DNA from: a virus
Lineage: Duplodnaviria > Heunggongvirae > Uroviricota > Caudoviricetes
IMG/VR virus record: IMGVR_UViG_2693429524_000013
Reading direction: 5' to 3' (one strand)
Length of the DNA: 13,512 bases
Shown here: positions 2,066 through 13,247 of the stretch, in pieces
Position numbering within the stretch: position 1 is the first letter of the stretch
Layout: every line of letters begins with the position of its first letter
Made by a program: the position numbers and the translations under genes
Notes under the pieces: generated by a model
What the model saw: only the letters and a program-made list of their open reading frames with translations
What the model was told of the DNA's origin: nothing
The model's database searches: none

Positions 2066-3112
2066 TTATTTAGCCTTGGCTTTTGCCAGAGCAGCGGCGG
2101 CGGAGTTACTAACACTCACTTTAACCACAACTTCAGGCATCATGTTCATGAAAGCATAAGAGGATTCAATGAAGATTTCTCGTTTACCTCTGGACTCTTC
2201 CATATACATGAAAGCTTCACGTGCAGCGCCGTTTGCAAGCTTCAGGTTGCGAGCGCAAGGGCCGAAAAATTGAGTATAAACGCCCACCATATCGCCTAAC
2301 GCATGTGGCTGGAATTGTGGGACCAGATAAGCAGTATTCTCTGGCAGACTATCCATTTGCACCACACGCAGGGCTAAGCCCGGAATGCGGAAGGTCGGGA
2401 AGCCCGGCAGAATATCCTCAGGGAACATCAGGCCTTTGTCAGTGATATTTTGATTGCCGAACAACAGCACCTTACGGAGCAGTTCATCAGTCTGAATTGC
2501 AGCAAAGAGTTCAGCACGGCAGAACAGGGTGAAACCACGCAGAGCACGAACGACACCACGCTGTTTAACCTTGCTCAGTGCAACCAGGTCCTGCAGCTGT
2601 TTAAGGATATCTTTAGCTAAATCCACTTCTGAAGTGGTTTGCTGTGCGCCCAGCAGTTCGCACACATTCAGTTCTTTACCCTTGGTGAGGATAATTTTGT
2701 TCTCAAAGAGAGCAAGCTGGCGTGCTTCTTCGTGGGTCTGGCGTAAGCCTTCGCCAAGCTGAATAACACGACGAGCGGTTACAGACTCTAAATTCTCTTC
2801 GGAATCTTTGCCCGGAACGCGGATACCCTGCCAGTCAGAAGGATAAATAGCACTTGATGCGGCAGTGAATGCCATATCACCCGTGCCCGTTTCACGCTCA
2901 TCTGCGGTAATGGTCGCCATCTGTTCACCGTAGCGAGGATACTGACCGAAAGCAGATTGTTTCACCTGGCGAACTTTGTCATATTCAAATTTAAAGGTAT
3001 TGCACAGAGCAGTAGTGTTGAAGATATCCATTGCTGAAATAATCTGGTTATCCAGCGGGATGTCTTTAATCAGACCACACAGATCGCGAACTTCGAATTC
3101 TTTCTTAGCCAT
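2066..3112 (-). CDS. major capsid protein, lambda gpE-like family (348 aa from ATG 3112)
   Basis: AAGGAGG SD lies 6 nt upstream of ATG 3112; the track start at 3118 is a TTG. Size (~350 aa), position directly after a decoration-protein gene, and overall sequence character match the phage major capsid protein E family. A strong terminator lies downstream. Confidence 0.8.
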   Translation of the reverse strand: MAKKEFEVRDLCGLIKDIPLDNQIISAMDIFNTTALCNTFKFEYDKVRQVKQSAFGQYPRYGEQMATITADERETGTGDMAFTAASSAIYPSDWQGIRVPGKDSEENLESVTARRVIQLGEGLRQTHEEARQLALFENKIILTKGKELNVCELLGAQQTTSEVDLAKDILKQLQDLVALSKVKQRGVVRALRGFTLFCRAELFAAIQTDELLRKVLLFGNQNITDKGLMFPEDILPGFPTFRIPGLALRVVQMDSLPENTAYLVPQFQPHALGDMVGVYTQFFGPCARNLKLANGAAREAFMYMEESRGKREIFIESSYAFMNMMPEVVVKVSVSNSAAAALAKAKAK

Positions 3113-3123
3113 CTTCAACCTCC

Positions 3124-4449: not shown

Positions 4450-4710
4450 ATGACGGGGGCTAAAGATATCAGGAGACTGAGGGAAGAGCTGATAGCTGAA
4501 ATTAAAGCTAAGGCAAAGCAAATGGAGATAGCCGCACAAATGGATGTAGCGGAACAGATGTACAAGATGGTTGAAGAGGGAACACCACGACAGGTTATCG
4601 CTAAAACCTTCGGTGTGGGGATCGCCACCGTGCACAGAAGGCTGAAAGCCTATGCCGACTACCACAACATTGAGAGAGGGGAGGATGGGAGATTTAAGAA
4701 GAATAAATAG
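4450..4710 (+). CDS. small coiled-coil plus C-terminal HTH DNA-binding protein (86 aa)
   Basis: GAGGAG SD is present. The segment TPRQVIAKTFGVGIATVHRRLKAY is a resolvase/sigma-region-4-style HTH. Its ATG overlaps the stop of an 8-codon uORF (4427-4453). GGAGTTTATGA is duplicated at 4420-4430 and 4443-4453. Confidence 0.75.
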   Translation: MTGAKDIRRLREELIAEIKAKAKQMEIAAQMDVAEQMYKMVEEGTPRQVIAKTFGVGIATVHRRLKAYADYHNIERGEDGRFKKNK

Positions 4711-5289: not shown

Positions 5290-5297
5290 CCTACCAG

Positions 5298-5318
5298 GGG
5301 GCCATCACGGCCCCTTTT
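5298..5318 (+). terminator. rho-independent terminator of the accessory cassette
   Basis: GGGGCC (5298-5303), loop ATCAC, GGCCCC (5309-5314), then TTTT. Confidence 0.8.
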
Positions 5319-5342
5319 CTATTTCCAGTCGCTATAGCTCCT

Positions 5343-5414
5343 GAGTAATTCCACTCCCTGAGGTCGTGATCAATTCCACACCCTACCCCCTGATCAATTA
5401 ACCCCTATTTAATG
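5343..5414. repeat. three ~24-bp direct repeats (TGATCAATTCCAC-type)
   Basis: AATTCCAC occurs at 5347-5354 and 5372-5379. TGATCAATT occurs at 5367-5375 and 5391-5399. A related 17-mer CCCCTGATCA(A/T)TTAACC occurs at 5387-5403 and 6284-6300. Confidence 0.6.
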
Positions 5415-5446
5415 GGTATTTAATGCCTATTTATTGATTTAATCCG
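5406..5446. repeat. AT-rich 11-bp phased repeats (TATTTAATG x3-4), resembling a DNA-unwinding element
   Basis: TATTTAATG at 5406-5414 and 5417-5425, TATTTATTG at 5428-5436, ATTTAATCC at 5438-5446. The period is 11 bp. Confidence 0.55.
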
Positions 5447-5514
5447 TTTTATGCCACAACCGCCCGGTTGACAGAGTAAGAGAGAGGGTGTAACCCTTTT
5501 TCGTAATACTAATG

Positions 5515-5530
5515 AAATCAATAAGTTAGC
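5515..5530 (+). repeat. 16-nt motif AAATCAATAAGTTAGC, copy 1 (matches IHF consensus WATCAANNNNTTR)
   Basis: Identical 16-mer at 13259-13274. The core AATCAATAAGTTA fits WATCAA-N4-TTR. Confidence 0.6.
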
Positions 5531-5584
5531 TTAATAGGCCTTTTCTCTATTTTTGTCAAATTTAACATACCCTAAAAAACTGCA

Positions 5585-5618
5585 AAATCTGGCTGCAAGA
5601 TTATCTGCAGCTGGATTT
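5585..5618 (+). other. 34-nt imperfect hairpin
   Basis: AAATCTGGCTGCA pairs with TGCAGCTGGATTT. There are 13 pairs, including two G-T pairs that are wobble only if the plus strand is read as RNA. Confidence 0.4.
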
Positions 5619-6520
5619 CTTACACCTCATTTTGTGGTATCACCCTGACTAGTTTGTGCATAAATTGAACAGTTTTTAACATTTCCTCTTCACCTGGTAA
5701 CCACACAAAAAGCTAAAAACGAGGCACAGATAATCTTAGAGGCCTATTTTCTTGTTATCACTCTGGAAACGTCGTAGAAGTGATTTTGATGAAAGGCGAC
5801 CTACCCTATTACACCCCCATTTTTTGTTATCACAATTGCATCCTGTGTGGCTATATGGCTATGTGCTGAAAGCGGTCTCGGGTGTGGGTGTCAGAAATAT
5901 CCATTAGCGGTATTTGAGCTTATGGGTAACTCGTCTGAGGTGCCAGGCAGGCGCTCCCCTACCTCCCTTTTTTCTTCTAACAATTCTCAAATATCACACC
6001 ACTGCCCACCACGTTGCTATTATGTTAATTCTTAAGCTTTGCTGTATGTTGTGCACATTATTTATTCAGGTGGCTGTACGTAAATTCTGTGCCCACTGAT
6101 CATGATTTTTAAATCAGATTTTGTAGTGCGGTTTCTTAGTGCTGATAAGATCTATTATGTTAAATGCAATTTTCCCAACCCTTCAAATCAATGACTTACA
6201 TGTAAGCATGCACTAACACCACACACAGCACATTAGACGTATAGATGGCTATATCCCACATATTTGATTGTTTTGTAGTCATTCCCCTGATCATTTAACC
6301 AGTATAGTTTGTTATCTGCAGACCACAAAATCGGAATTTACATCTGATTAACATAATCTGTTAGCATGATCACCATTACCCACACAACAATAACCCCATG
6401 TAAGCCTCTTCAGGCAATTTATCGGCGTGTTGGTGTGAACAGTCTTTCATGTTCTTTATGTATCAGTTGTCCTGTGTGGTGATTTGGTGGACTGCCCCAG
6501 GGGCCATACTTATGATGCCC

Positions 6521-6559
6521 GGTCAACATAGCTGTTGATAAAATCAACGGGTGTTGACC
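6521..6559. promoter_or_regulatory. twin palindromic operator-like sites
   Basis: TCAACA-tagc-TGTTGA (6523-6538) and TCAAC-gggt-GTTGA (6544-6557), with centres 20 bp apart. Outer arms GGTCAACA and TGTTGACC also pair. Confidence 0.45.
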
Positions 6560-6632
6560 TGCATATTTCCCACACATGAGAGGAAATCAGAGCAAAGAGA
6601 GAGGAGAGAGGTTTGTTAGTCACATATGGTGA

Positions 6633-6664
6633 TTTGAGCTCATCTCAAACCTTCTACGAAGGCC
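6633..6664 (+). repeat. two-hairpin module, copy A
   Basis: TTTGAG-ctcat-CTCAAA (6633-6649) abuts CCTTC-TAC-GAAGG (6650-6662), followed by CC. The 5' flank is TCACATATG. Confidence 0.65.
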
Positions 6665-6719
6665 TTTGCTAGTCAAAATCAAGTCACATTAGAGTCAAAT
6701 CAGATGCAATCAATCCCCC

Positions 6720-7051
6720 ACCTGTTGGGATTTCCCACATGTTCAACCATACACAGGAGCTAACCTGTTGGGATTTCCTACAACCCCTTTCAGTCATACT
6801 CAGGCACCACACCCCGGTAAATATTTCCCTACTACCCCGGAGAATTTCTCCGCACTACCTGTAAAGAATTTTCACACCTGTGTGTTTATACAATCATACT
6901 CTCCTGTTTTGCAGTCATTGCACCCATGATACACAGCCCTAACCTGTAAAATATTTTTACTACCCCGCCAATAATACGGCCCATACCTGTAAAATATTTT
7001 TACTACTACCTGTCAAAATCTTTTACTACTACCTGTAAAAATATTTGACAC
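6720..7051 (+). repeat. array of nine ~21-23 bp iterons, consensus ACCTGTAAAATATTTTTAC(TAC); candidate replication origin or centromere
   Basis: Units start at 6720, 6763, 6813, 6836, 6857, 6942, 6985, 7008 and 7031. The last three abut with exact 23-bp phasing. Each unit has an internal dyad. Confidence 0.8.
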
Positions 7052-7080
7052 TAATAGATAAAGTAATAGACCACACAATA

Positions 7081-7118
7081 GATCCCCCTAACCCCCCAGG
7101 GGGGAATGGGGAGGGATC
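7081..7118. repeat. G/C palindrome GATCCC...CCCCCC-A-GGGGGG...GGGATC followed by G-tracts
   Basis: C6-A-G6 lies at 7092-7104. Outer arms are GATCCC (7081-7086) and GGGATC (7113-7118). Downstream G-tracts (G6, G4, G3, G4) fit a loose G-quadruplex pattern. Confidence 0.6.
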
Positions 7119-7167
7119 AGAGAGTGGGGAAGGTTTTCTAAGGGAAAAGCTTAACCCACAAATGAAA

Positions 7168-7196
7168 GCCTAAAGAGCATTAGCGACTCTTTAGGC
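7168..7196 (-). terminator. 10-bp perfect hairpin, terminator-like on the minus strand
   Basis: GCCTAAAGAG (7168-7177) pairs with CTCTTTAGGC (7187-7196) across a 9-nt loop. The minus strand continues UUUCAUUUG. There is no U run on the plus side. Confidence 0.45.
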
Positions 7197-7208
7197 AATC
7201 TGTGTGTG

Positions 7209-7243
7209 GGGTGACAATGTATTCCATACATGACACGTCACCC
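7209..7243. other. nested hairpin
   Basis: Outer stem GGGTGAC (7209-7215) pairs with GTCACCC (7237-7243). The inner hairpin is ATGTAT-tcc-ATACAT (7217-7231). Confidence 0.5.
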
Positions 7244-7271
7244 TGCTCACATGTGTGGTCCACTTCGTGGA

Positions 7272-7310
7272 TTTGAGTTCACTCCGTAACTCAAACCCTC
7301 TACGAGGGCC
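7272..7310 (+). repeat. two-hairpin module, copy B (compensatory changes relative to copy A)
   Basis: TTTGAGTT-cactccgt-AACTCAAA (7272-7295) abuts CCCTC-TAC-GAGGG (7296-7308), followed by CC. It is preceded by CCAC-ttc-GTGG (7260-7270) and the flank TCACATGTG. Confidence 0.65.
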
Positions 7311-7356
7311 TTGTGTGGGGAGCGTAGTGCGATAGCACGTAGCTATATAATGTGGA

Positions 7357-7390
7357 GTCCGGATAAGAGACTTCTGTTTCCAATCCGGAC
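7357..7390. other. 8-bp perfect hairpin with an 18-nt loop
   Basis: GTCCGGAT (7357-7364) pairs with ATCCGGAC (7383-7390). Confidence 0.5.
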
Positions 7391-7410
7391 CGTTTAAGCG
7401 AGTGGTTTCT

Positions 7411-7436
7411 CGCGCGCGTGCACGCACACATATATA
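7411..7436. repeat. 26-nt perfectly alternating pyrimidine/purine tract (Z-DNA-prone)
   Basis: CGCGCGCGTGCACGCACACATATATA. It contains the 10-bp palindrome GCGTGCACGC (7416-7425). Confidence 0.7.
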
Positions 7437-7461
7437 AAGGATACACTCATAAATCGAAAAT

Positions 7462-7480
7462 AAGGCCCCTAAATGGCCTT
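7462..7480 (-). terminator. hairpin, terminator-like on the minus strand
   Basis: AAGGCC-cctaaat-GGCCTT. The minus strand continues AUUUUCGAUUU. Confidence 0.4.
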
Positions 7481-7616
7481 CTGGCTGCATTAACTAGTTT
7501 GAGTAGTGTAATTGCATTACCTGATGCTCAAATCGCGTTGTAGGGCCTCTTATGATGTTTGAGTTTAACACCCTCCAAAGTTTTAACAAAAAGTGCTCTC
7601 CCTCCATTGTGGGCCA

Positions 7617-7646
7617 TTGACAATCTTATTGCATAAATGCTATAAG
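7617..7646 (+). promoter_or_regulatory. strong sigma70 promoter P1 (rightward)
   Basis: TTGACA (7617-7622), 18-nt spacer, TATAAG (7641-7646), with TGc extended -10. The -35 context is TTGACAAT. Confidence 0.6.
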
Positions 7647-7744
7647 TTATTCTGTTTTTGACACGGTAGGGGACATTAATAATGCTTACCCCTTTGCTGT
7701 GGACTTGTTTGTACCTATAGCTCGCCTAAATGATAATGATTCCC

Positions 7745-7774
7745 ATTGACAATTGGTTGTCAATATGATAAGAT
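7745..7774 (+). promoter_or_regulatory. sigma70 promoter P2 (rightward) with an overlapping 20-bp palindromic operator
   Basis: TTGACA (7746-7751), 17-nt spacer, TAAGAT (7769-7774), with TGa extended -10. The operator ATTGACAA-ttgg-TTGTCAAT spans 7745-7764. Confidence 0.6.
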
Positions 7775-7936
7775 TATAGATAGTGGGAGAAACAGATCCG
7801 GAGGTCAACGTGGAACTGAGCGACGCTATAGCGATCATCAACCTGGCTGTAATGTGGTGCGGTGTTGCCTACATAGCCGGAGTAACTGCAATCGACAACC
7901 TTGAAGAAAAAATGATAGATAAATACAAAAAGATTG

Positions 7937-7965
7937 TTGACAATCTCGCAAATAGCTGATAAAAT
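7937..7965 (+). promoter_or_regulatory. strong sigma70 promoter P3 (rightward)
   Basis: TTGACA (7937-7942), 17-nt spacer, TAAAAT (7960-7965), with TGa extended -10. The spacer contains TCTCGCAAA (7944-7952), the core of the 18-nt motif. Confidence 0.7.
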
Positions 7966-8087: not shown

Positions 8088-8297
8088 ATGGCTAAAACCG
8101 GACCGATAAGCCAGCTGGTAAACTGGACTACTGACGAAATCGTCGAGAACGTGCTTAAAGGTAACTTTCGCAAAACTTCCGTTTATGCATTTATTCGAAA
8201 ACATAAAGGAGAATATCCACACATTGAAGCGGCAATAGAAAGATTAAACTTTATTAAACTTGAGCGCCAGCTGGAAAGATATAAACATCTGATTTAA
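8088..8297 (+). CDS. small early protein (69 aa), possible Cro/excisionase-like DNA-binding protein
   Basis: AGGAG SD lies 8 nt upstream. It is the first gene after the tandem promoters. The function call is weak. Confidence 0.7.
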   Translation: MAKTGPISQLVNWTTDEIVENVLKGNFRKTSVYAFIRKHKGEYPHIEAAIERLNFIKLERQLERYKHLI

Positions 8298-8317: not shown

Positions 8318-9202
8318 ATGGCAAACAATAAACTGGGGGCACATTTCACCCCCATTTTTAAACGTTTTATCAAGTATAATTTTGAAAATCCAATTGCAAA
8401 AACTACAACAGGCAAAGAGAGATTTAATTTAAATGCGACGGAATTGATAATTTACGGGGAAATGGTTGGCTTTCATTTAAACGGCAAAGAAATATTCATC
8501 TCGGAGCAGACCTTAGCAGATGATTGGGATTTTTCAAGACCAACGATTATTAAAGCTATTAAATCTCTAGTAAATGCTGGGATTATTTCTAAAGATAACC
8601 GGAAAGGCAAATCTAACATTTACAAACTGTTAATTACACCTGAGCAGTTTGATAAAATGTGCGATGAGCAGGGTATTAAAACCTTAGACAGTGTGGGAGA
8701 CAGCAAAGAGGCACCTGCTACACAGGCCCAAGATAATCAACAGGAAGCCCCAAAACAAGCCACACAGCAGCCTGAAAAGCCCGAGGCAATGCAATCCCCT
8801 TCCCAACCTAAAAAAGAACACAGAGAACGCCGTAGAGACGCTGGCAAACGTGAAATAGATGAGCACGGTTATCCGATTCTGACAAGCGATGAAATGAATG
8901 CCAGATATAAAGTAATTCAGGCCGCATTTAAAGATCAGAAGAGAATTAAATTATCTGAATTGCGTGATACATTTTACGGGCCGGAGGTGATGGATAAAAT
9001 TAAAGGCACTATTCCTGATAAAATCTGGAAAGAGGAAGATTACTGGCACCTGACAGAGCAGGCCCTTAAGGTAGCTCAACACGTGGTTAAAAGAGGCAAA
9101 TCAATTATTATTGATTCTATTAGTCATGGCTATGATGCACCGAAAGAAAGGTTGTGGAACAACTGCAAGCTTGTAAAAGGCGAATTGACAATTACAAAAT
9201 AA
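8318..9202 (+). CDS. replication initiator candidate: N-terminal winged-HTH (lambda O / replisome-organiser-like), Gln/Pro-rich linker, C-terminal domain (294 aa)
   Basis: The N-terminal segment ISEQTLADDWDFSRPTIIKAIKSLVNAGIISKDNRKGKSNIYKL is a classic wHTH of phage/plasmid initiators. A low-complexity linker APATQAQDNQQEAPKQATQQPEKPEAMQSPSQPKK follows. The three-part architecture resembles lambda O. Confidence 0.6.
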   Translation: MANNKLGAHFTPIFKRFIKYNFENPIAKTTTGKERFNLNATELIIYGEMVGFHLNGKEIFISEQTLADDWDFSRPTIIKAIKSLVNAGIISKDNRKGKSNIYKLLITPEQFDKMCDEQGIKTLDSVGDSKEAPATQAQDNQQEAPKQATQQPEKPEAMQSPSQPKKEHRERRRDAGKREIDEHGYPILTSDEMNARYKVIQAAFKDQKRIKLSELRDTFYGPEVMDKIKGTIPDKIWKEEDYWHLTEQALKVAQHVVKRGKSIIIDSISHGYDAPKERLWNNCKLVKGELTITK

Positions 9203-9240: not shown

Positions 9241-9387
9241 ATGTATGGCGATTTTGATTATTACCTGGAAAAGGAAAAATATTTTGAAGATGAACTATCA
9301 CAACATTTTTCATATTGGGAAGAATATTGTGGTTGGTTAGCTGAAGATCCAGCAGATGAAGAAAATGATTCTGACATCCCTTATTAA
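9241..9387 (+). CDS. 48-aa hyper-acidic, aromatic-rich early protein (track ORF 9154-9387, trimmed to ATG 9241)
   Basis: AAGGA SD lies 9 nt upstream of ATG 9241; the longer form would overlap the upstream gene by 49 nt. The sequence is MYGDFDYYLEKEKYFEDELSQHFSYWEEYCGWLAEDPADEENDSDIPY, with 16 of 48 residues Asp or Glu. Confidence 0.55.
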   Translation: MYGDFDYYLEKEKYFEDELSQHFSYWEEYCGWLAEDPADEENDSDIPY

Positions 9388-9478: not shown

Positions 9479-9964
9479 ATGTTCAAATCTGATCTTTCTG
9501 ATTCCCAATTTGAAAAACTGGTAGCACTGCAGAAATACCTCCCCAGTGATGATCAACCAACACGACAGGCCAAACACTTATTAGTCGAGGGCTTTACCCC
9601 TGAATTCGTTGCGGAATATACAGGCGTTAAACTTGAGAAAGTCCAAAAACTATATAATGAGTCCTGGAATCCACGGTGTCGAGTTCCCCTCAGTGTCTAT
9701 AACGACATAGATAGAGATAAAAATGTCTTCGAAGATCGCCGCCGCAAATCTCTTTTAATGTGGAATTGTGGGATGAATATTGAAGAGATAGCAAAAGAAT
9801 TAAAAGTAACCTGCTTTCATATATGGGGCTTGTTGAGCGACCTCCTGCCACGTAAGGAGCTTAATCAACGTTTGCCTAAGCCCGGTAGTCGTGCTTATCG
9901 CGAATTTATATTCATCTACCGCCGCCATAGCAATAAAGTCCGGAAAGCAATGCAGCGCAAATAG
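9479..9964 (+). CDS. double-HTH (sigma-region-4 / LuxR-like repeats) DNA-binding protein (161 aa)
   Basis: GGAG SD is present. Two HTH-like modules are seen: LLVEGFTPEFVAEYTGVKLEKVQKLY and LLMWNCGMNIEEIAKELKVTCFHIWGLL. The C-terminus is basic. Confidence 0.7.
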   Translation: MFKSDLSDSQFEKLVALQKYLPSDDQPTRQAKHLLVEGFTPEFVAEYTGVKLEKVQKLYNESWNPRCRVPLSVYNDIDRDKNVFEDRRRKSLLMWNCGMNIEEIAKELKVTCFHIWGLLSDLLPRKELNQRLPKPGSRAYREFIFIYRRHSNKVRKAMQRK

Positions 9965-11144: not shown

Positions 11145-13247
11145 ATGGCAATGAAGGAAGTCGCCAGACTAACAAACGTTATTTACTGGGATTCTGATAA
11201 ATCCTCCTGGCGAAAAGAAGTTAAACGGCTTGAGGATTATAAAAAATCCTGGAAGAAAGCCACCGACGATATAGCTAAAGCTGATTTTAAATCTAATCAG
11301 GCTGTGCTCAGAACACAAAGAACACGCGCTAAGGTGGAAGAGCAGATTGCCAGAGCACAGAAGAAACAACGTGCTCAGGCTGTCAGCCGTCTGACCGGGG
11401 GCAATAATCCGGAGCTCTCCTCTATGCGCAAGTTCTATCAGCAGCAAGCCAGAGAAGCCGCCAGACAACAAAAACTGTTAGATCGTAGTGTTGGAGATGT
11501 TCAGCACAGAAAAGCACGTGTAGGGGCCAACAGTGCACGAATCAGCAGCATGTTTGATGGATCCCTGGTTGCTCAGTTCCAATCCAGAATCCAGAGAGTT
11601 AATGCTGATTATGCTAAAGGGGCTATTAACCTGCAGACCTATAATCAGAAAATGGCTCGGCTCAGAGCTGAAATGAAGATGGCAACAGTAGAGGCCGGAA
11701 AATTTCAGAGCAGACTGGATAAACTGGCATCAGGTGCCAGCAAGGTGCATGACAACCTGGGCAAAATCAACTCCACACTAGGCAAGATAGCCATTGGCCT
11801 TACTGCCGCTGGCTGGGGTGTTCAGCGTGCTGTTAGTGGTGCTATGGGTAGCCTTGCAGATCGCAACAGTGCCTACTTCGGTTTGATGGCACAGAACAAG
11901 GATGATAAAGCCAAGACTGACCAGCAGATGGCCTACGTCAAAAGAATCTCTTATGACTATGGGATGGATCAGCGTGAGACCGAAGGCGGCTTTATGCGCT
12001 TTGCTGCAGCCACACCAAGCATAAAAGAGAAAGATAAGCAGGATCTCTTTGAGGCTATGGCGATTAAAGGCCGATCAGTGGGTGCTACTGCGGACCAACA
12101 GAACAGGGCTATCGTTGCACTAGGACAGATATATAGCAAGGGCGGTCGAGTGTATGCGGAAGAGCTTAAGGGCCAGCTGTCAGAAGCCCTGGCAGGTTCT
12201 CAGGTAGATTTCACTAAGGCCGCTATCGATGCCGGAATCATCAAGAAAGAGGAAGAATTTAATAAAGCCCTTGAAGATGGCAAGATCACCATGGACAAGC
12301 TTCTTCCTTCCCTAGTGAAAATCTGGGGTGCTGCAAAAGAAACTAAAGCTTTTGCTGAATCCATGAAACAGCCAGAAGTAGCAATGCAGCGCATGAAAAA
12401 CAGCTTTAACGAGCTGGCGATTCAGTTTATGGGTGTTGTGGATCCTGCCGATGGCGTTGTTAGCTTATCTGAATCTCTGATCTCCATCTTCGAAGACCTC
12501 ACCACTGATATGGACGGCAGCGGGAGCGCGGCAAAACAGTTTGGTGAAGCAGTCGGTGCTGCCATGCGGGAGATCATGTATTGGGTAGGCTTCGCTAAGG
12601 GCTATATCGAGGTCAAGGCTAAAGAGTTCGGCATGACCGGATCAGAGGTTGGCGAGCTTATCGGGAAACTAGTAGTCGGCTTAGCAGGTCTGAAAGTTAT
12701 TACCACACTGCTTTCCCCTCTAACCGGATTTGTTTCACTTGTCACTCAGCTGATAGCCTTGTTAGGCAAAATCCCTGGTATGAGCAAGCTTATGGCATCT
12801 GCCTCAGGTGGAACGGCAACAGGAGCAGCGGTCATCAGTGCAGGATCTAACGCTGAAAGAAGTTTCATTGATGGCAAGACGCAGGAAATGAGTAAGGAGA
12901 ACTCAAAACAGGGCGCTTTGTTTGAGCTGGGGAGATTTGTCAGCAATGCTGGCGCACTGTTCACACCTGGCGGTGATACTGGTCCTTTGTTCGATCAGGT
13001 CAAAGGCTGGTTTAATAAAGGGCCAACATTGACAGTAGACACTGGCATCAGACCAACACCAACAGGCGGCATAGCTATCCAGAATGGTGGATATCAACCA
13101 GTCCAAGTAAATGTAGCCCCACAAGGTGAGATTTCCGGCAAATGGGAGATAACCATCGATGAGGGGGGAATTGCCAGGGTGATCCAGAAGGAAGTCAGCG
13201 ATCAGTTGGATTGGAAAGCCACACAGGAATCTAACCAGCTTTTCTAA
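11145..13247 (+). CDS. tail tape measure protein (700 aa)
   Basis: GAGGTG SD is present. The N-terminus is coiled-coil-like. The segment ALGQIYSKGGRVYAEELKGQLSEALAGSQVDF matches the conserved tape-measure domain core. Hydrophobic segments are present (LVVGLAGLKVITTLLSPLTGFVSLVTQLIALLGKIPG), and the C-terminus is Gly-rich. Confidence 0.85.
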   Translation: MAMKEVARLTNVIYWDSDKSSWRKEVKRLEDYKKSWKKATDDIAKADFKSNQAVLRTQRTRAKVEEQIARAQKKQRAQAVSRLTGGNNPELSSMRKFYQQQAREAARQQKLLDRSVGDVQHRKARVGANSARISSMFDGSLVAQFQSRIQRVNADYAKGAINLQTYNQKMARLRAEMKMATVEAGKFQSRLDKLASGASKVHDNLGKINSTLGKIAIGLTAAGWGVQRAVSGAMGSLADRNSAYFGLMAQNKDDKAKTDQQMAYVKRISYDYGMDQRETEGGFMRFAAATPSIKEKDKQDLFEAMAIKGRSVGATADQQNRAIVALGQIYSKGGRVYAEELKGQLSEALAGSQVDFTKAAIDAGIIKKEEEFNKALEDGKITMDKLLPSLVKIWGAAKETKAFAESMKQPEVAMQRMKNSFNELAIQFMGVVDPADGVVSLSESLISIFEDLTTDMDGSGSAAKQFGEAVGAAMREIMYWVGFAKGYIEVKAKEFGMTGSEVGELIGKLVVGLAGLKVITTLLSPLTGFVSLVTQLIALLGKIPGMSKLMASASGGTATGAAVISAGSNAERSFIDGKTQEMSKENSKQGALFELGRFVSNAGALFTPGGDTGPLFDQVKGWFNKGPTLTVDTGIRPTPTGGIAIQNGGYQPVQVNVAPQGEISGKWEITIDEGGIARVIQKEVSDQLDWKATQESNQLF

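Follow-up and report, generated by a model that had tools for sequence, protein, structure and literature searches.

A Probable Replication Origin With Dyad Iterons of Several Specificity Classes in a 13.5-kb Phage-Like Plasmid of Escherichia coli

Results

A Small Plasmid With Phage Structural Genes and a Large Gene-Free Region

The stretch of DNA analyzed here (the window; 13,512 bp) represents essentially an entire circular replicon, a 13.5-kb plasmid of Escherichia coli that carries phage capsid and tail genes. These encode a tail-completion protein (236-694), a Dit-like baseplate protein (691-1611), the major capsid protein (2066-3118, minus strand), and a tape-measure protein (11145-13247); the plasmid family also encodes a few small proteins, and neither a terminase nor a portal protein is recognized among its genes. 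Plasmids of 13.2-13.7 kb, covering 81-94% of the window at 92-94% identity, occur in seven complete E. coli genomes, and as a 13-14 kb phage-like element the family is widespread in E. coli, Shigella, and E. albertii. One record, L002 (NZ_CP043822.1, 39,610 bp), consists of a head-to-tail trimer of a unit of about 13.2 kb, which may be a multimer formed in vivo or an assembly artefact. Five such plasmids are listed in PLSDB, all of them as non-mobilizable, and replicon typing is reported for none of the PLSDB records of the family.

The replicon resembles a phage satellite residing on a plasmid or else a strongly reduced phage-plasmid, and the family is possibly a satellite. Comparison of its non-coding region (megablast/blastn) and of its capsid protein and candidate initiator Rep (tblastn) with a phage collection gave no match, and no helper or parent phage was identified in this way. 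Scanning of viral contigs with a conserved 161-aa protein retrieved no relative, a scan of genome contigs for relatives yielded only spurious matches in Alkalihalobacterium, and a literature search on the plasmid family and its accessions found no description. The comparisons reported below include the window plasmid and 35 sister plasmids. Nine relatives came from annotated collections, five from metagenomes, and 25 from contigs encoding diverse homologues of the 294-aa protein Rep; for the most divergent Rep homologue (P0101), the contigs retrieved were too short for an array.

All members of the family contain a gene-free stretch of 2.3-2.8 kb (about 5290-7780 in the window), inside of which lies the repeat array. 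In an alignment of ten plasmids, the segment from about 5400 to 6615 is 95-100% identical and the array segment (6616-7200) is hypervariable, entire units being exchanged, gained, or missing. The 1.2-kb segment 5400-6615 is conserved beyond its flanking genes and the adjacent array. It holds no annotated gene in any relative, its only ORFs are shorter than 62 aa, and it has no match in Rfam or in the phage collection; one may ask whether it encodes a large RNA or contains a packaging site.

Nine Phased Dyad Units Between Positions 6720 and 7053

Nine phased units had been proposed for this region from its letters, and a repeat search of the window recovers them at 6720-7053. The consensus ACCYSKNDRRWWHTYYBMS matches exactly these nine units and nothing else on either strand of the 13.5 kb, whereas 0.03 matches are expected and 0 of 200 shuffled sequences reach nine, a comparison that is partly circular because the consensus was derived from the same units. 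Seven of the unit starts given in the original prediction stand, but for units 3 and 4 a better register begins at 6811 and 6834 (ACCCCGG...), and the spacings are corrected accordingly to 43, 48, 23, 23, 85, 43, 23, and 23 bp, the remainder being as first described. Aligned at their centers, the units are 23-mers beginning at 6720, 6763, 6811, 6834, 6857, 6942, 6985, 7008, and 7031. Common to all of them are ACC at the left edge, an A/T-rich center, and a tendency to AC at the right; the arms differ from unit to unit and are symmetric.

At least seven classes of units can be distinguished in the arrays of the 36 plasmids, with the typical cores TGTTGG[G/A]ATTTCCCACA (class A), CGGTAAATATT[T/A]CCG (class B), CGGAGAATTTCTCCG (class C), TGTAAAATATTTTTAC (class D), TGT[G/A]AAGAATTTTCACA (class E), and CTGA[A/G][G/A]ATTTCTCA (class F), and with class G as a B-like variant. 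In the window, all on the plus strand, unit 1 (ACCTGTTGGGATTTCCCACATGT; 6720-6742) and unit 2 (6763-6785, 43 bp after unit 1) belong to class A, which is non-cognate for the resident Rep as defined below; the array opens with a class-A unit in every plasmid examined. Unit 3 (ACCCCGGTAAATATTTCCCTACT; 6811-6833) belongs to class B, the cognate class of the Rep helices TEKTVRSAIKTL and TPKTVRTAIHSL in sister plasmids. Unit 4 (CCGGAGAATTTCTCCG; 6834-6856) is a perfect palindrome of class C, the cognate class of the Rep helix SDRKIRDSIKSL, and its 23-mer is identical to a cognate unit in sister plasmids with this helix. Unit 5 (ACCTGTAAAGAATTTTCACACCT; 6857-6879) differs by three mismatches from the class-D consensus and represents class E, which is present as a single copy in most plasmids regardless of their Rep and for which no cognate Rep was found among the sister plasmids. 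The remaining four units (CTGT[A/C]AAAATATTTTTAC; 6942, 6985, 7008, and 7031, together 6942-7053) are of class D and are spaced 43-23-23.

The nine units had been treated as one set, yet only these last four match the class of the resident protein. The last four units share one class and a 43-23-23 spacing in 36 of 36 plasmids. They are preceded by a variable set, which begins at its left edge with one, two, or three class-A units and continues with single units of classes B, C, E, and sometimes D. In the window, this variable set consists of units 1-5 (A, A, B, C, and E; 6720-6879). For at least four of these five, the class (A, B, or C) is one that makes up the four-unit cluster of some sister plasmids, class A doing so in plasmids whose Rep has the helix KDRGKI[VA]SAIKSL. 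Array lengths range from 284 to 590 bp inside one class. Class-D sites are confined to the array and are not found at the promoters of the rep operon; the sole class-D-like site outside the array (9273-9289, minus strand; CTTCAAAATATTTTTCC), with three mismatches and located just past the rep stop codon, is probably due to chance.

Several smaller features lie between or close to the units. A short dyad 19 bp to the right of unit 5 (6878-6893), CTGTA-N6-TACAG in relatives, has a degenerate form in the window (CTGTGTGTTTATACAA), and a CAGTCAT(AC) motif is present in three copies between units (6791-6801, 6891-6901, and 6909-6918); neither is listed in the original prediction, and no partner was found for either. 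DnaA-box-like 9-mers (TTTCCCACA, ATTTTCACA) lie on the plus strand at 6566, 6731, and 6868, and also at 6376 and 6616. All are matches with one mismatch, two of them lie inside units 1 and 5, and their number, about 7 where about 2 are expected, is a rough estimate only. An ORF at 6768-6929 was rejected as protein-coding, since the arrays of relatives differ there in length and unit content, and the nine annotated relatives show no gene here.

Sequences Adjoining the Array

Directly 3' of the fourth class-D unit follows an AT-rich block (TAATAGATAAAGTAATAGACCACACAATAGAT; 7050-7083, plus strand) with 26% GC and three AATAGA repeats, which is found at this place in 36 of 36 plasmids and is proposed here as a putative unwinding element. 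Next to it lies a palindrome composed of a C-run and a G-run (CCCCCTAACCCCCCAGGGGGGAATGGGGAGGG; 7084-7115, plus strand), the position of which is conserved while the homopolymers vary in length. Depending on the plasmid, there are 5-8 C or G, and the same element is also predicted as a minus-strand terminator-like hairpin. The cumulative GC skew has its global minimum at about 6900-7500 and its maximum diametrically opposite on the circle, a profile that suffers from noise in a replicon of 13.5 kb and from the confounding effect of gene orientation.

From the end of the array at 7053 to the start of rep at 8318, two small ORFs and promoters are encountered, and the gene for the winged helix-turn-helix (wHTH) protein lies, as had been noted, outside the array, 1.27 kb downstream. 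The stretch 7150-7460, between the array and the rep operon, is variable and hairpin-rich, with long inverted repeats and a minus-strand terminator-like stem-loop (7196-7168), and it is overlapped by an unannotated ORF of 99 aa (7191-7490, minus strand).

Rep, a Hypervariable Winged-Helix Protein

The candidate initiator Rep (294 aa; 8318-9202, plus strand) consists of an N-terminal wHTH domain (aa ~40-118), a low-complexity linker (120-177, with PQEAPKQATQQ), and a C-terminal domain (180-294) of one of two types. In an AlphaFold model with a mean pLDDT of 70, both domains are mostly above 75 and the linker is disordered; helix 3 of the wHTH comprises residues 74-86 (RPTIIKAIKSLVN) and the wing residues 90-104. 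Among eight proteins compared in ten plasmids, Rep is the sole hypervariable one (20-99% identity); identity is 84-100% for most of the others, with more variation just in two small proteins, p69 and p61. In the model, the variable residues of Rep map to the turn and to the N-terminal half of helix 3. The turn and recognition helix (FSRPTIIKAIKSLVN) are encoded by codons 72-86 (8531-8575, plus strand), the segment that co-varies with the class of the units.

Profile searches of Pfam with Rep match HTH_36 with 26.7 bits (cut-off 25) and DnaD_N and GntR at E<=0.01; they give no match to Phage_rep_O, RepA_N, or Rep_3, and no curated Rep family was matched in NCBIfam. Since neither Phage_rep_O nor a curated Rep family is matched, Rep is not a member of the phage O family by sequence. 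Among PHROG families, matches (1e-10 to 1e-8) are obtained with families annotated as replication initiation, O-like, and DnaD-like, those with the O-like families at 1e-8. Comparison with the sequences of solved structures retrieves only generic wHTH matches, and the fold neighbors of the model include plasmid initiator-DNA complexes (5kbj, 4pt7), DnaD-N (2v79), and many models of phage replication initiators, with Foldseek E-values of 0.01-0.04 for 4pql, 4pt7, and 5kbj. No other Rep candidate or other repeat set was found in the window plasmid, and no gene for a P-like loader was recognized in it.

The commonest fold and sequence neighbors of Rep are, at the same time, repressors of the MarR, GntR, and CodY types, and palindromic dimer sites are typical of operators. 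One could therefore regard the array as an operator region and the wHTH protein as its repressor, acting in an immunity or induction switch of a phage satellite; one relative even carries the annotation MarR family regulator for this gene, but this is L006, the Rep of which is unrelated in sequence. However, no good promoter overlaps the units, the best candidate (6871-6900) scoring 9/12, and the strong promoters of the rep operon (7746-7774 and 7937-7965), located in sequence that is about 95% conserved in the ten-plasmid alignment, are devoid of a class-specific site. Moreover, four phased sites next to an AT-rich block constitute the layout of an origin, and an operator function of the array seems quite unlikely to us.

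The Recognition Helix of Rep Co-varies With the Class of the Four-Unit Cluster

Wherever Rep is of the family type, the start of its recognition helix correctly predicts the class of the four-unit cluster (35 of 35 plasmids), seven or eight helix types corresponding to seven half-sites, whereby the seven classes amount to few independent events. The helix SRPT[I/V]I[K/N][A/S]IKSL goes together with the half-site TGTAAAA in eight plasmids including the window plasmid, TEKTVRSAIKTL with CGGTAAA in three, TPKTVRTAIHSL with cGGTAAA in four, SDRKIRDSIKSL with CGGAGAA in six, SDRKIIESIKTL with cTGAGAA in five, KDRGKIVSAIKSL with TGTTGGAA in five, and KDRGKIASAIKSL with TGCTGGAA in three plasmids. 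Between the C-type and the F-type helix a single R to I replacement (KIRDS versus KIIES) is accompanied by a symmetric change from CGG..CCG to CTG..CA, that is, from G to T in the outer arm.

This match is independent of the wing, class C being found with two wing types (L007 versus L030), of the left part of the array, and also of the C-terminal domain: in L001 and L005 the N-terminal domains are 93-100% identical, the C-terminal domains are of different types, and the iterons are the same. The DNA between array and rep shows 89.3% identity in pairs of the same class (minimum 75.8%) versus 86.3% in pairs of different classes, and p69, a product of this DNA, has the same sequence in the class-D window plasmid as in class-A L005, and likewise one sequence is shared by class-C L007 and class-F L008. 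The match of helix and iteron persists on a heavily shuffled background and is thus what is expected of a functional pair and not of mere linkage.

Four products had been suggested as possible binders of the units. With a recognition helix that co-varies perfectly with the class in 35 plasmids, the product of 8318-9202 qualifies as their partner; those of 9479-9964 and 4450-4710 are nearly invariant across plasmids with different arrays, and the alleles of 8088-8297 disagree with the iteron class, so that these three are not retained. The co-variation supports an iteron-like role of the units for a dimeric winged-helix initiator and points to the 8318-9202 protein as this initiator, whose recognizable homology is weak (HTH_36 near the cut-off) and which is otherwise suggested by its context.

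Symmetry Is Maintained While Sequence Changes

The dyads TGGGA-TT-TCCCA, CGGAGAA-T-TTCTCCG, and GTAAAA-TAT-TTTTAC, on which the initial description was based, are present. In units 3, 5, 8, and 9, the dyad is imperfect, with 4-6 of 10 symmetric pairs. On direct reading, positions 4/12 and 5/11 switch together from G:C to A:T between copy 1 and copy 5, as stated, and compensatory changes of this kind were counted in the homologous arrays of the 36 plasmids. Among 87 distinct units, in which about seven classes and not 87 units represent the independent events, positions +-3, 4, 6, and 7 are complementary in 76-89%, compared with 39-48% in column shuffles. The observed complementarity was reached by 0 of 1000 shuffles, and 2-3 types of complementary pairs occur per position. 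The shuffle test therefore confirms the central observation of the original prediction, namely that symmetry is kept while the sequence drifts. Several units in relatives are even perfect 21-bp palindromes, for example CCCCGGTAAATTTTACCGGGG.

Two explanations had been offered for this behavior, several specificity classes of a dimeric binding protein or recognition of a hairpin or cruciform. According to the latter, the dyads would act as hairpins of single-stranded DNA or RNA or as cruciforms, and their symmetry would be kept for folding and not for a dimer on duplex DNA. Compensatory symmetric changes are indeed also expected of a conserved stem, and the predicted folding energies are -5.1 kcal/mol (z -4.1) for unit 4 and -2.5 kcal/mol for each of units 6 and 7. 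These three, however, are the only units that fold clearly better than shuffled sequences; of the other six, five lie at 0 to -2 kcal/mol and do not surpass shuffled sequences, and the sixth, unit 9 (-0.5 kcal/mol, z -0.24), does so only marginally. A dyad center of a single base is too short for a viable loop, the region has no match to an Rfam family in a scan of the whole window, no promoter is evident at the units, and the fact that class identity tracks the recognition helix of a protein is not predicted from a folding constraint. Recognition as hairpins therefore appears most improbable. As hairpin stability is not conserved, and as the class co-varies with the recognition helix, the reading as specificity classes of a dimeric protein is supported instead: a symmetric dimer can take on a new specificity only if both half-sites change in the same way, and for this reason the dyad is kept while its sequence varies.

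Foreign Units, Rep Paralogs, and One Exchanged Rep

In three plasmids (L010, L036, and L037), an entire foreign cluster is located upstream of the cognate one. Foreign units are as symmetric as cognate ones (5.74 versus 5.66 of 8 pairs), and this lack of symmetry decay in non-cognate units sits poorly with their being pure relics. In some siblings, intact paralogs that consist only of the N-terminal domain of Rep are encoded directly upstream of full-length rep. Those of L027 (3604-3990) and L033 (3603-3989) comprise 128 aa and have a class-B helix, and the arrays of these plasmids are free of B units. In L001, an ORF between p69 and rep encodes such a paralog of 121 aa, whose helix SRKSVKNAIQSL was seen in no full-length Rep.

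Foreign clusters and N-terminal-only paralogs together suggest a repeated stacking of origin/initiator modules by recombination between siblings, and the heterologous units most likely arrived through such repeated exchange or stacking between sister plasmids. A more speculative idea, which we advance only tentatively, is that the foreign iterons are not remnants but working parts of conflict or cooperation between plasmids, and that these sites, together with the N-terminal-only paralogs of foreign specificity found in some siblings, would titrate, block, or exploit the initiator of a co-resident competitor. Each plasmid may then keep one or two intact sites for the initiators of its rivals, and diversifying selection may have produced the seven or more pairs of helix and iteron specificities. 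The seven complete genomes contain only one such plasmid per strain and thus give no instance of co-residence.

The one exception to the co-variation is L006 (NZ_CP020521.1), in which Rep is unrelated in sequence and the class-B cluster is retained. A cluster can therefore persist without its partner. The protein at the Rep position, of 303 aa and annotated as MarR family, has only the linker PQEAPKQ in common with the other Reps. Just downstream of its origin, L006 has gained three ATATCAAnnTGATAT repeats, which may serve its new Rep. Truncated versions of the L006-type protein (164-172 aa) are encoded upstream of rep in other siblings (L023, 3482-3982; L030, 3485-3982; L032, 3464-3982; L041, 2581-3075), where the ATATCAAnnTGATAT repeats are absent.

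Discussion

The four cognate dyad iterons, the AT-rich block, and the palindrome, situated near the minimum of the GC skew, together with the co-variation of Rep, suggest that the region is probably a vegetative (theta-type) origin of the lambda type, with four cognate and five heterologous iterons and with Rep as its initiator. Rep dimers would bind the four class-D dyads (6942-7053) through the N-terminal recognition helix, and the resulting nucleoprotein complex would open the adjoining AT-rich block at 7050-7083. The C-terminal domain of Rep may then recruit a helicase, and the upstream units (6720-6879) would represent iterons of other specificity classes. Counting against this proposal are the location of the array, which lies 1.27 kb from rep and not inside it, the weakness of the homology to known initiators, and the class-B cluster that L006 retains beside an unrelated Rep.

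At the lambda origin, four 19-bp iterons, each of them an imperfect inverted repeat, are bound by O dimers next to an adjoining AT-rich tract, and in Stx phages two further iterons are needed in spite of being bound only weakly (PMC7466680). The earlier statement that ordinary iterons conserve sequence and not symmetry thus holds only in part, as it overlooks lambda-type origins, in which every iteron is an imperfect inverted repeat (PMC7466680). The array described here is similar in having four tandem imperfect inverted repeats of about 19-21 bp with A/T-rich centers beside an AT-rich tract, and its additional iterons are reminiscent of those that Stx phages have beyond the strongly bound four. 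In lambda, a palindrome adjoins the AT-rich tract, and here a G/C palindrome follows the AT-rich block. In lambdoid phages, type-specific N-terminal halves of O are matched to type-specific iterons; likewise, Rep seems to be a two-domain initiator in which iteron specificity would reside in the N-terminal part, with matched pairs differing among members of the family. Unlike the lambda origin, which is located inside the initiator gene, the array lies 1.27 kb upstream of rep, and several iteron specificities are found side by side in one origin region. In contrast to lambda O, Rep has no match to Pfam Phage_rep_O and is similar only at the levels of the wHTH and of PHROG families. Finally, no gene for a P-like loader is recognized, and what replicates here is a stable plasmid of 13.5 kb that carries phage structural genes.

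A second likeness exists to initiators of the RepA_N type (RepA of pSK41 and pTZ2162) and to DnaD, where a DnaD-N-like N-terminal wHTH domain binds iterons and a separate C-terminal domain is present. It is reflected in the fold matches (4pql, 4pt7, 5kbj, and 2v79) and in the weak match to Pfam DnaD_N, but there is no match to Pfam RepA_N and the E-values of the fold matches are about 0.01-0.05. Origins of the RepA_N type lie inside rep in plasmids of Firmicutes. Plasmids of the Rep_3 type (F RepE, R6K pi, pSC101, and pPS10) also have phased repeats of about two helical turns next to an AT-rich region. Their iterons, however, are asymmetric direct repeats of one specificity that are bound by monomers, whereas all units are dyads in the present case, the specificity of the extra units is not that of the resident Rep, and no Rep_3 domain was found.

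In Rep_3 plasmids and in loci of the P1 incA type, copy number and incompatibility can be under the control of further iteron sets located beyond the minimal origin, and the sopC locus of F has a repeat spacing of 43 bp with an inner inverted repeat of the TGGGA..TCCCA type. Both the 43-bp spacing and a TGGGA..TCCCA dyad recur in the array. It is conceivable, then, that the array serves as a partition centromere or as a copy-control locus of the wHTH protein, acting by handcuffing or titration as in sopC, tubC, or P1 incA, with the origin elsewhere. Besides its phased repeats with inner dyads and the recurrent spacing that recall sopC, and besides the known use of extra iteron sets as copy-control devices, there is the centromere-binding TubR, also a wHTH protein, which among solved structures comes closest to Rep in sequence, although weakly (E 0.015-0.2; fold match 3m8e). 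Yet no NTPase of the ParA, ParM, or TubZ type was found in the window ORFs scanned or in nine annotated relatives, and unlike in F, genes resembling sopA and sopB are missing. The units co-vary with an initiator-like protein that comprises two domains and has matches in families with a replication-initiator annotation, and the cluster adjoins a conserved AT-rich block at the GC-skew minimum in a plasmid that offers no other Rep candidate or repeat set. We therefore consider a centromere or copy-control locus unlikely.

If the array is the origin, as we favor, it is an unusual one, as we have not seen an origin region described that carries intact iterons of several foreign specificities beside its own. 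The analysis places a candidate origin and a candidate initiator in a family of plasmids that replicon typing leaves unclassified. It also reveals a natural series of at least seven matched pairs of recognition helices and half-sites, some of which are one residue and one base pair apart, and this series offers a ready system for studying how the specificity of initiators for origins, and hence incompatibility, evolves. The foreign iterons, if they are functional, would represent a new form of cross-talk between related replicons.
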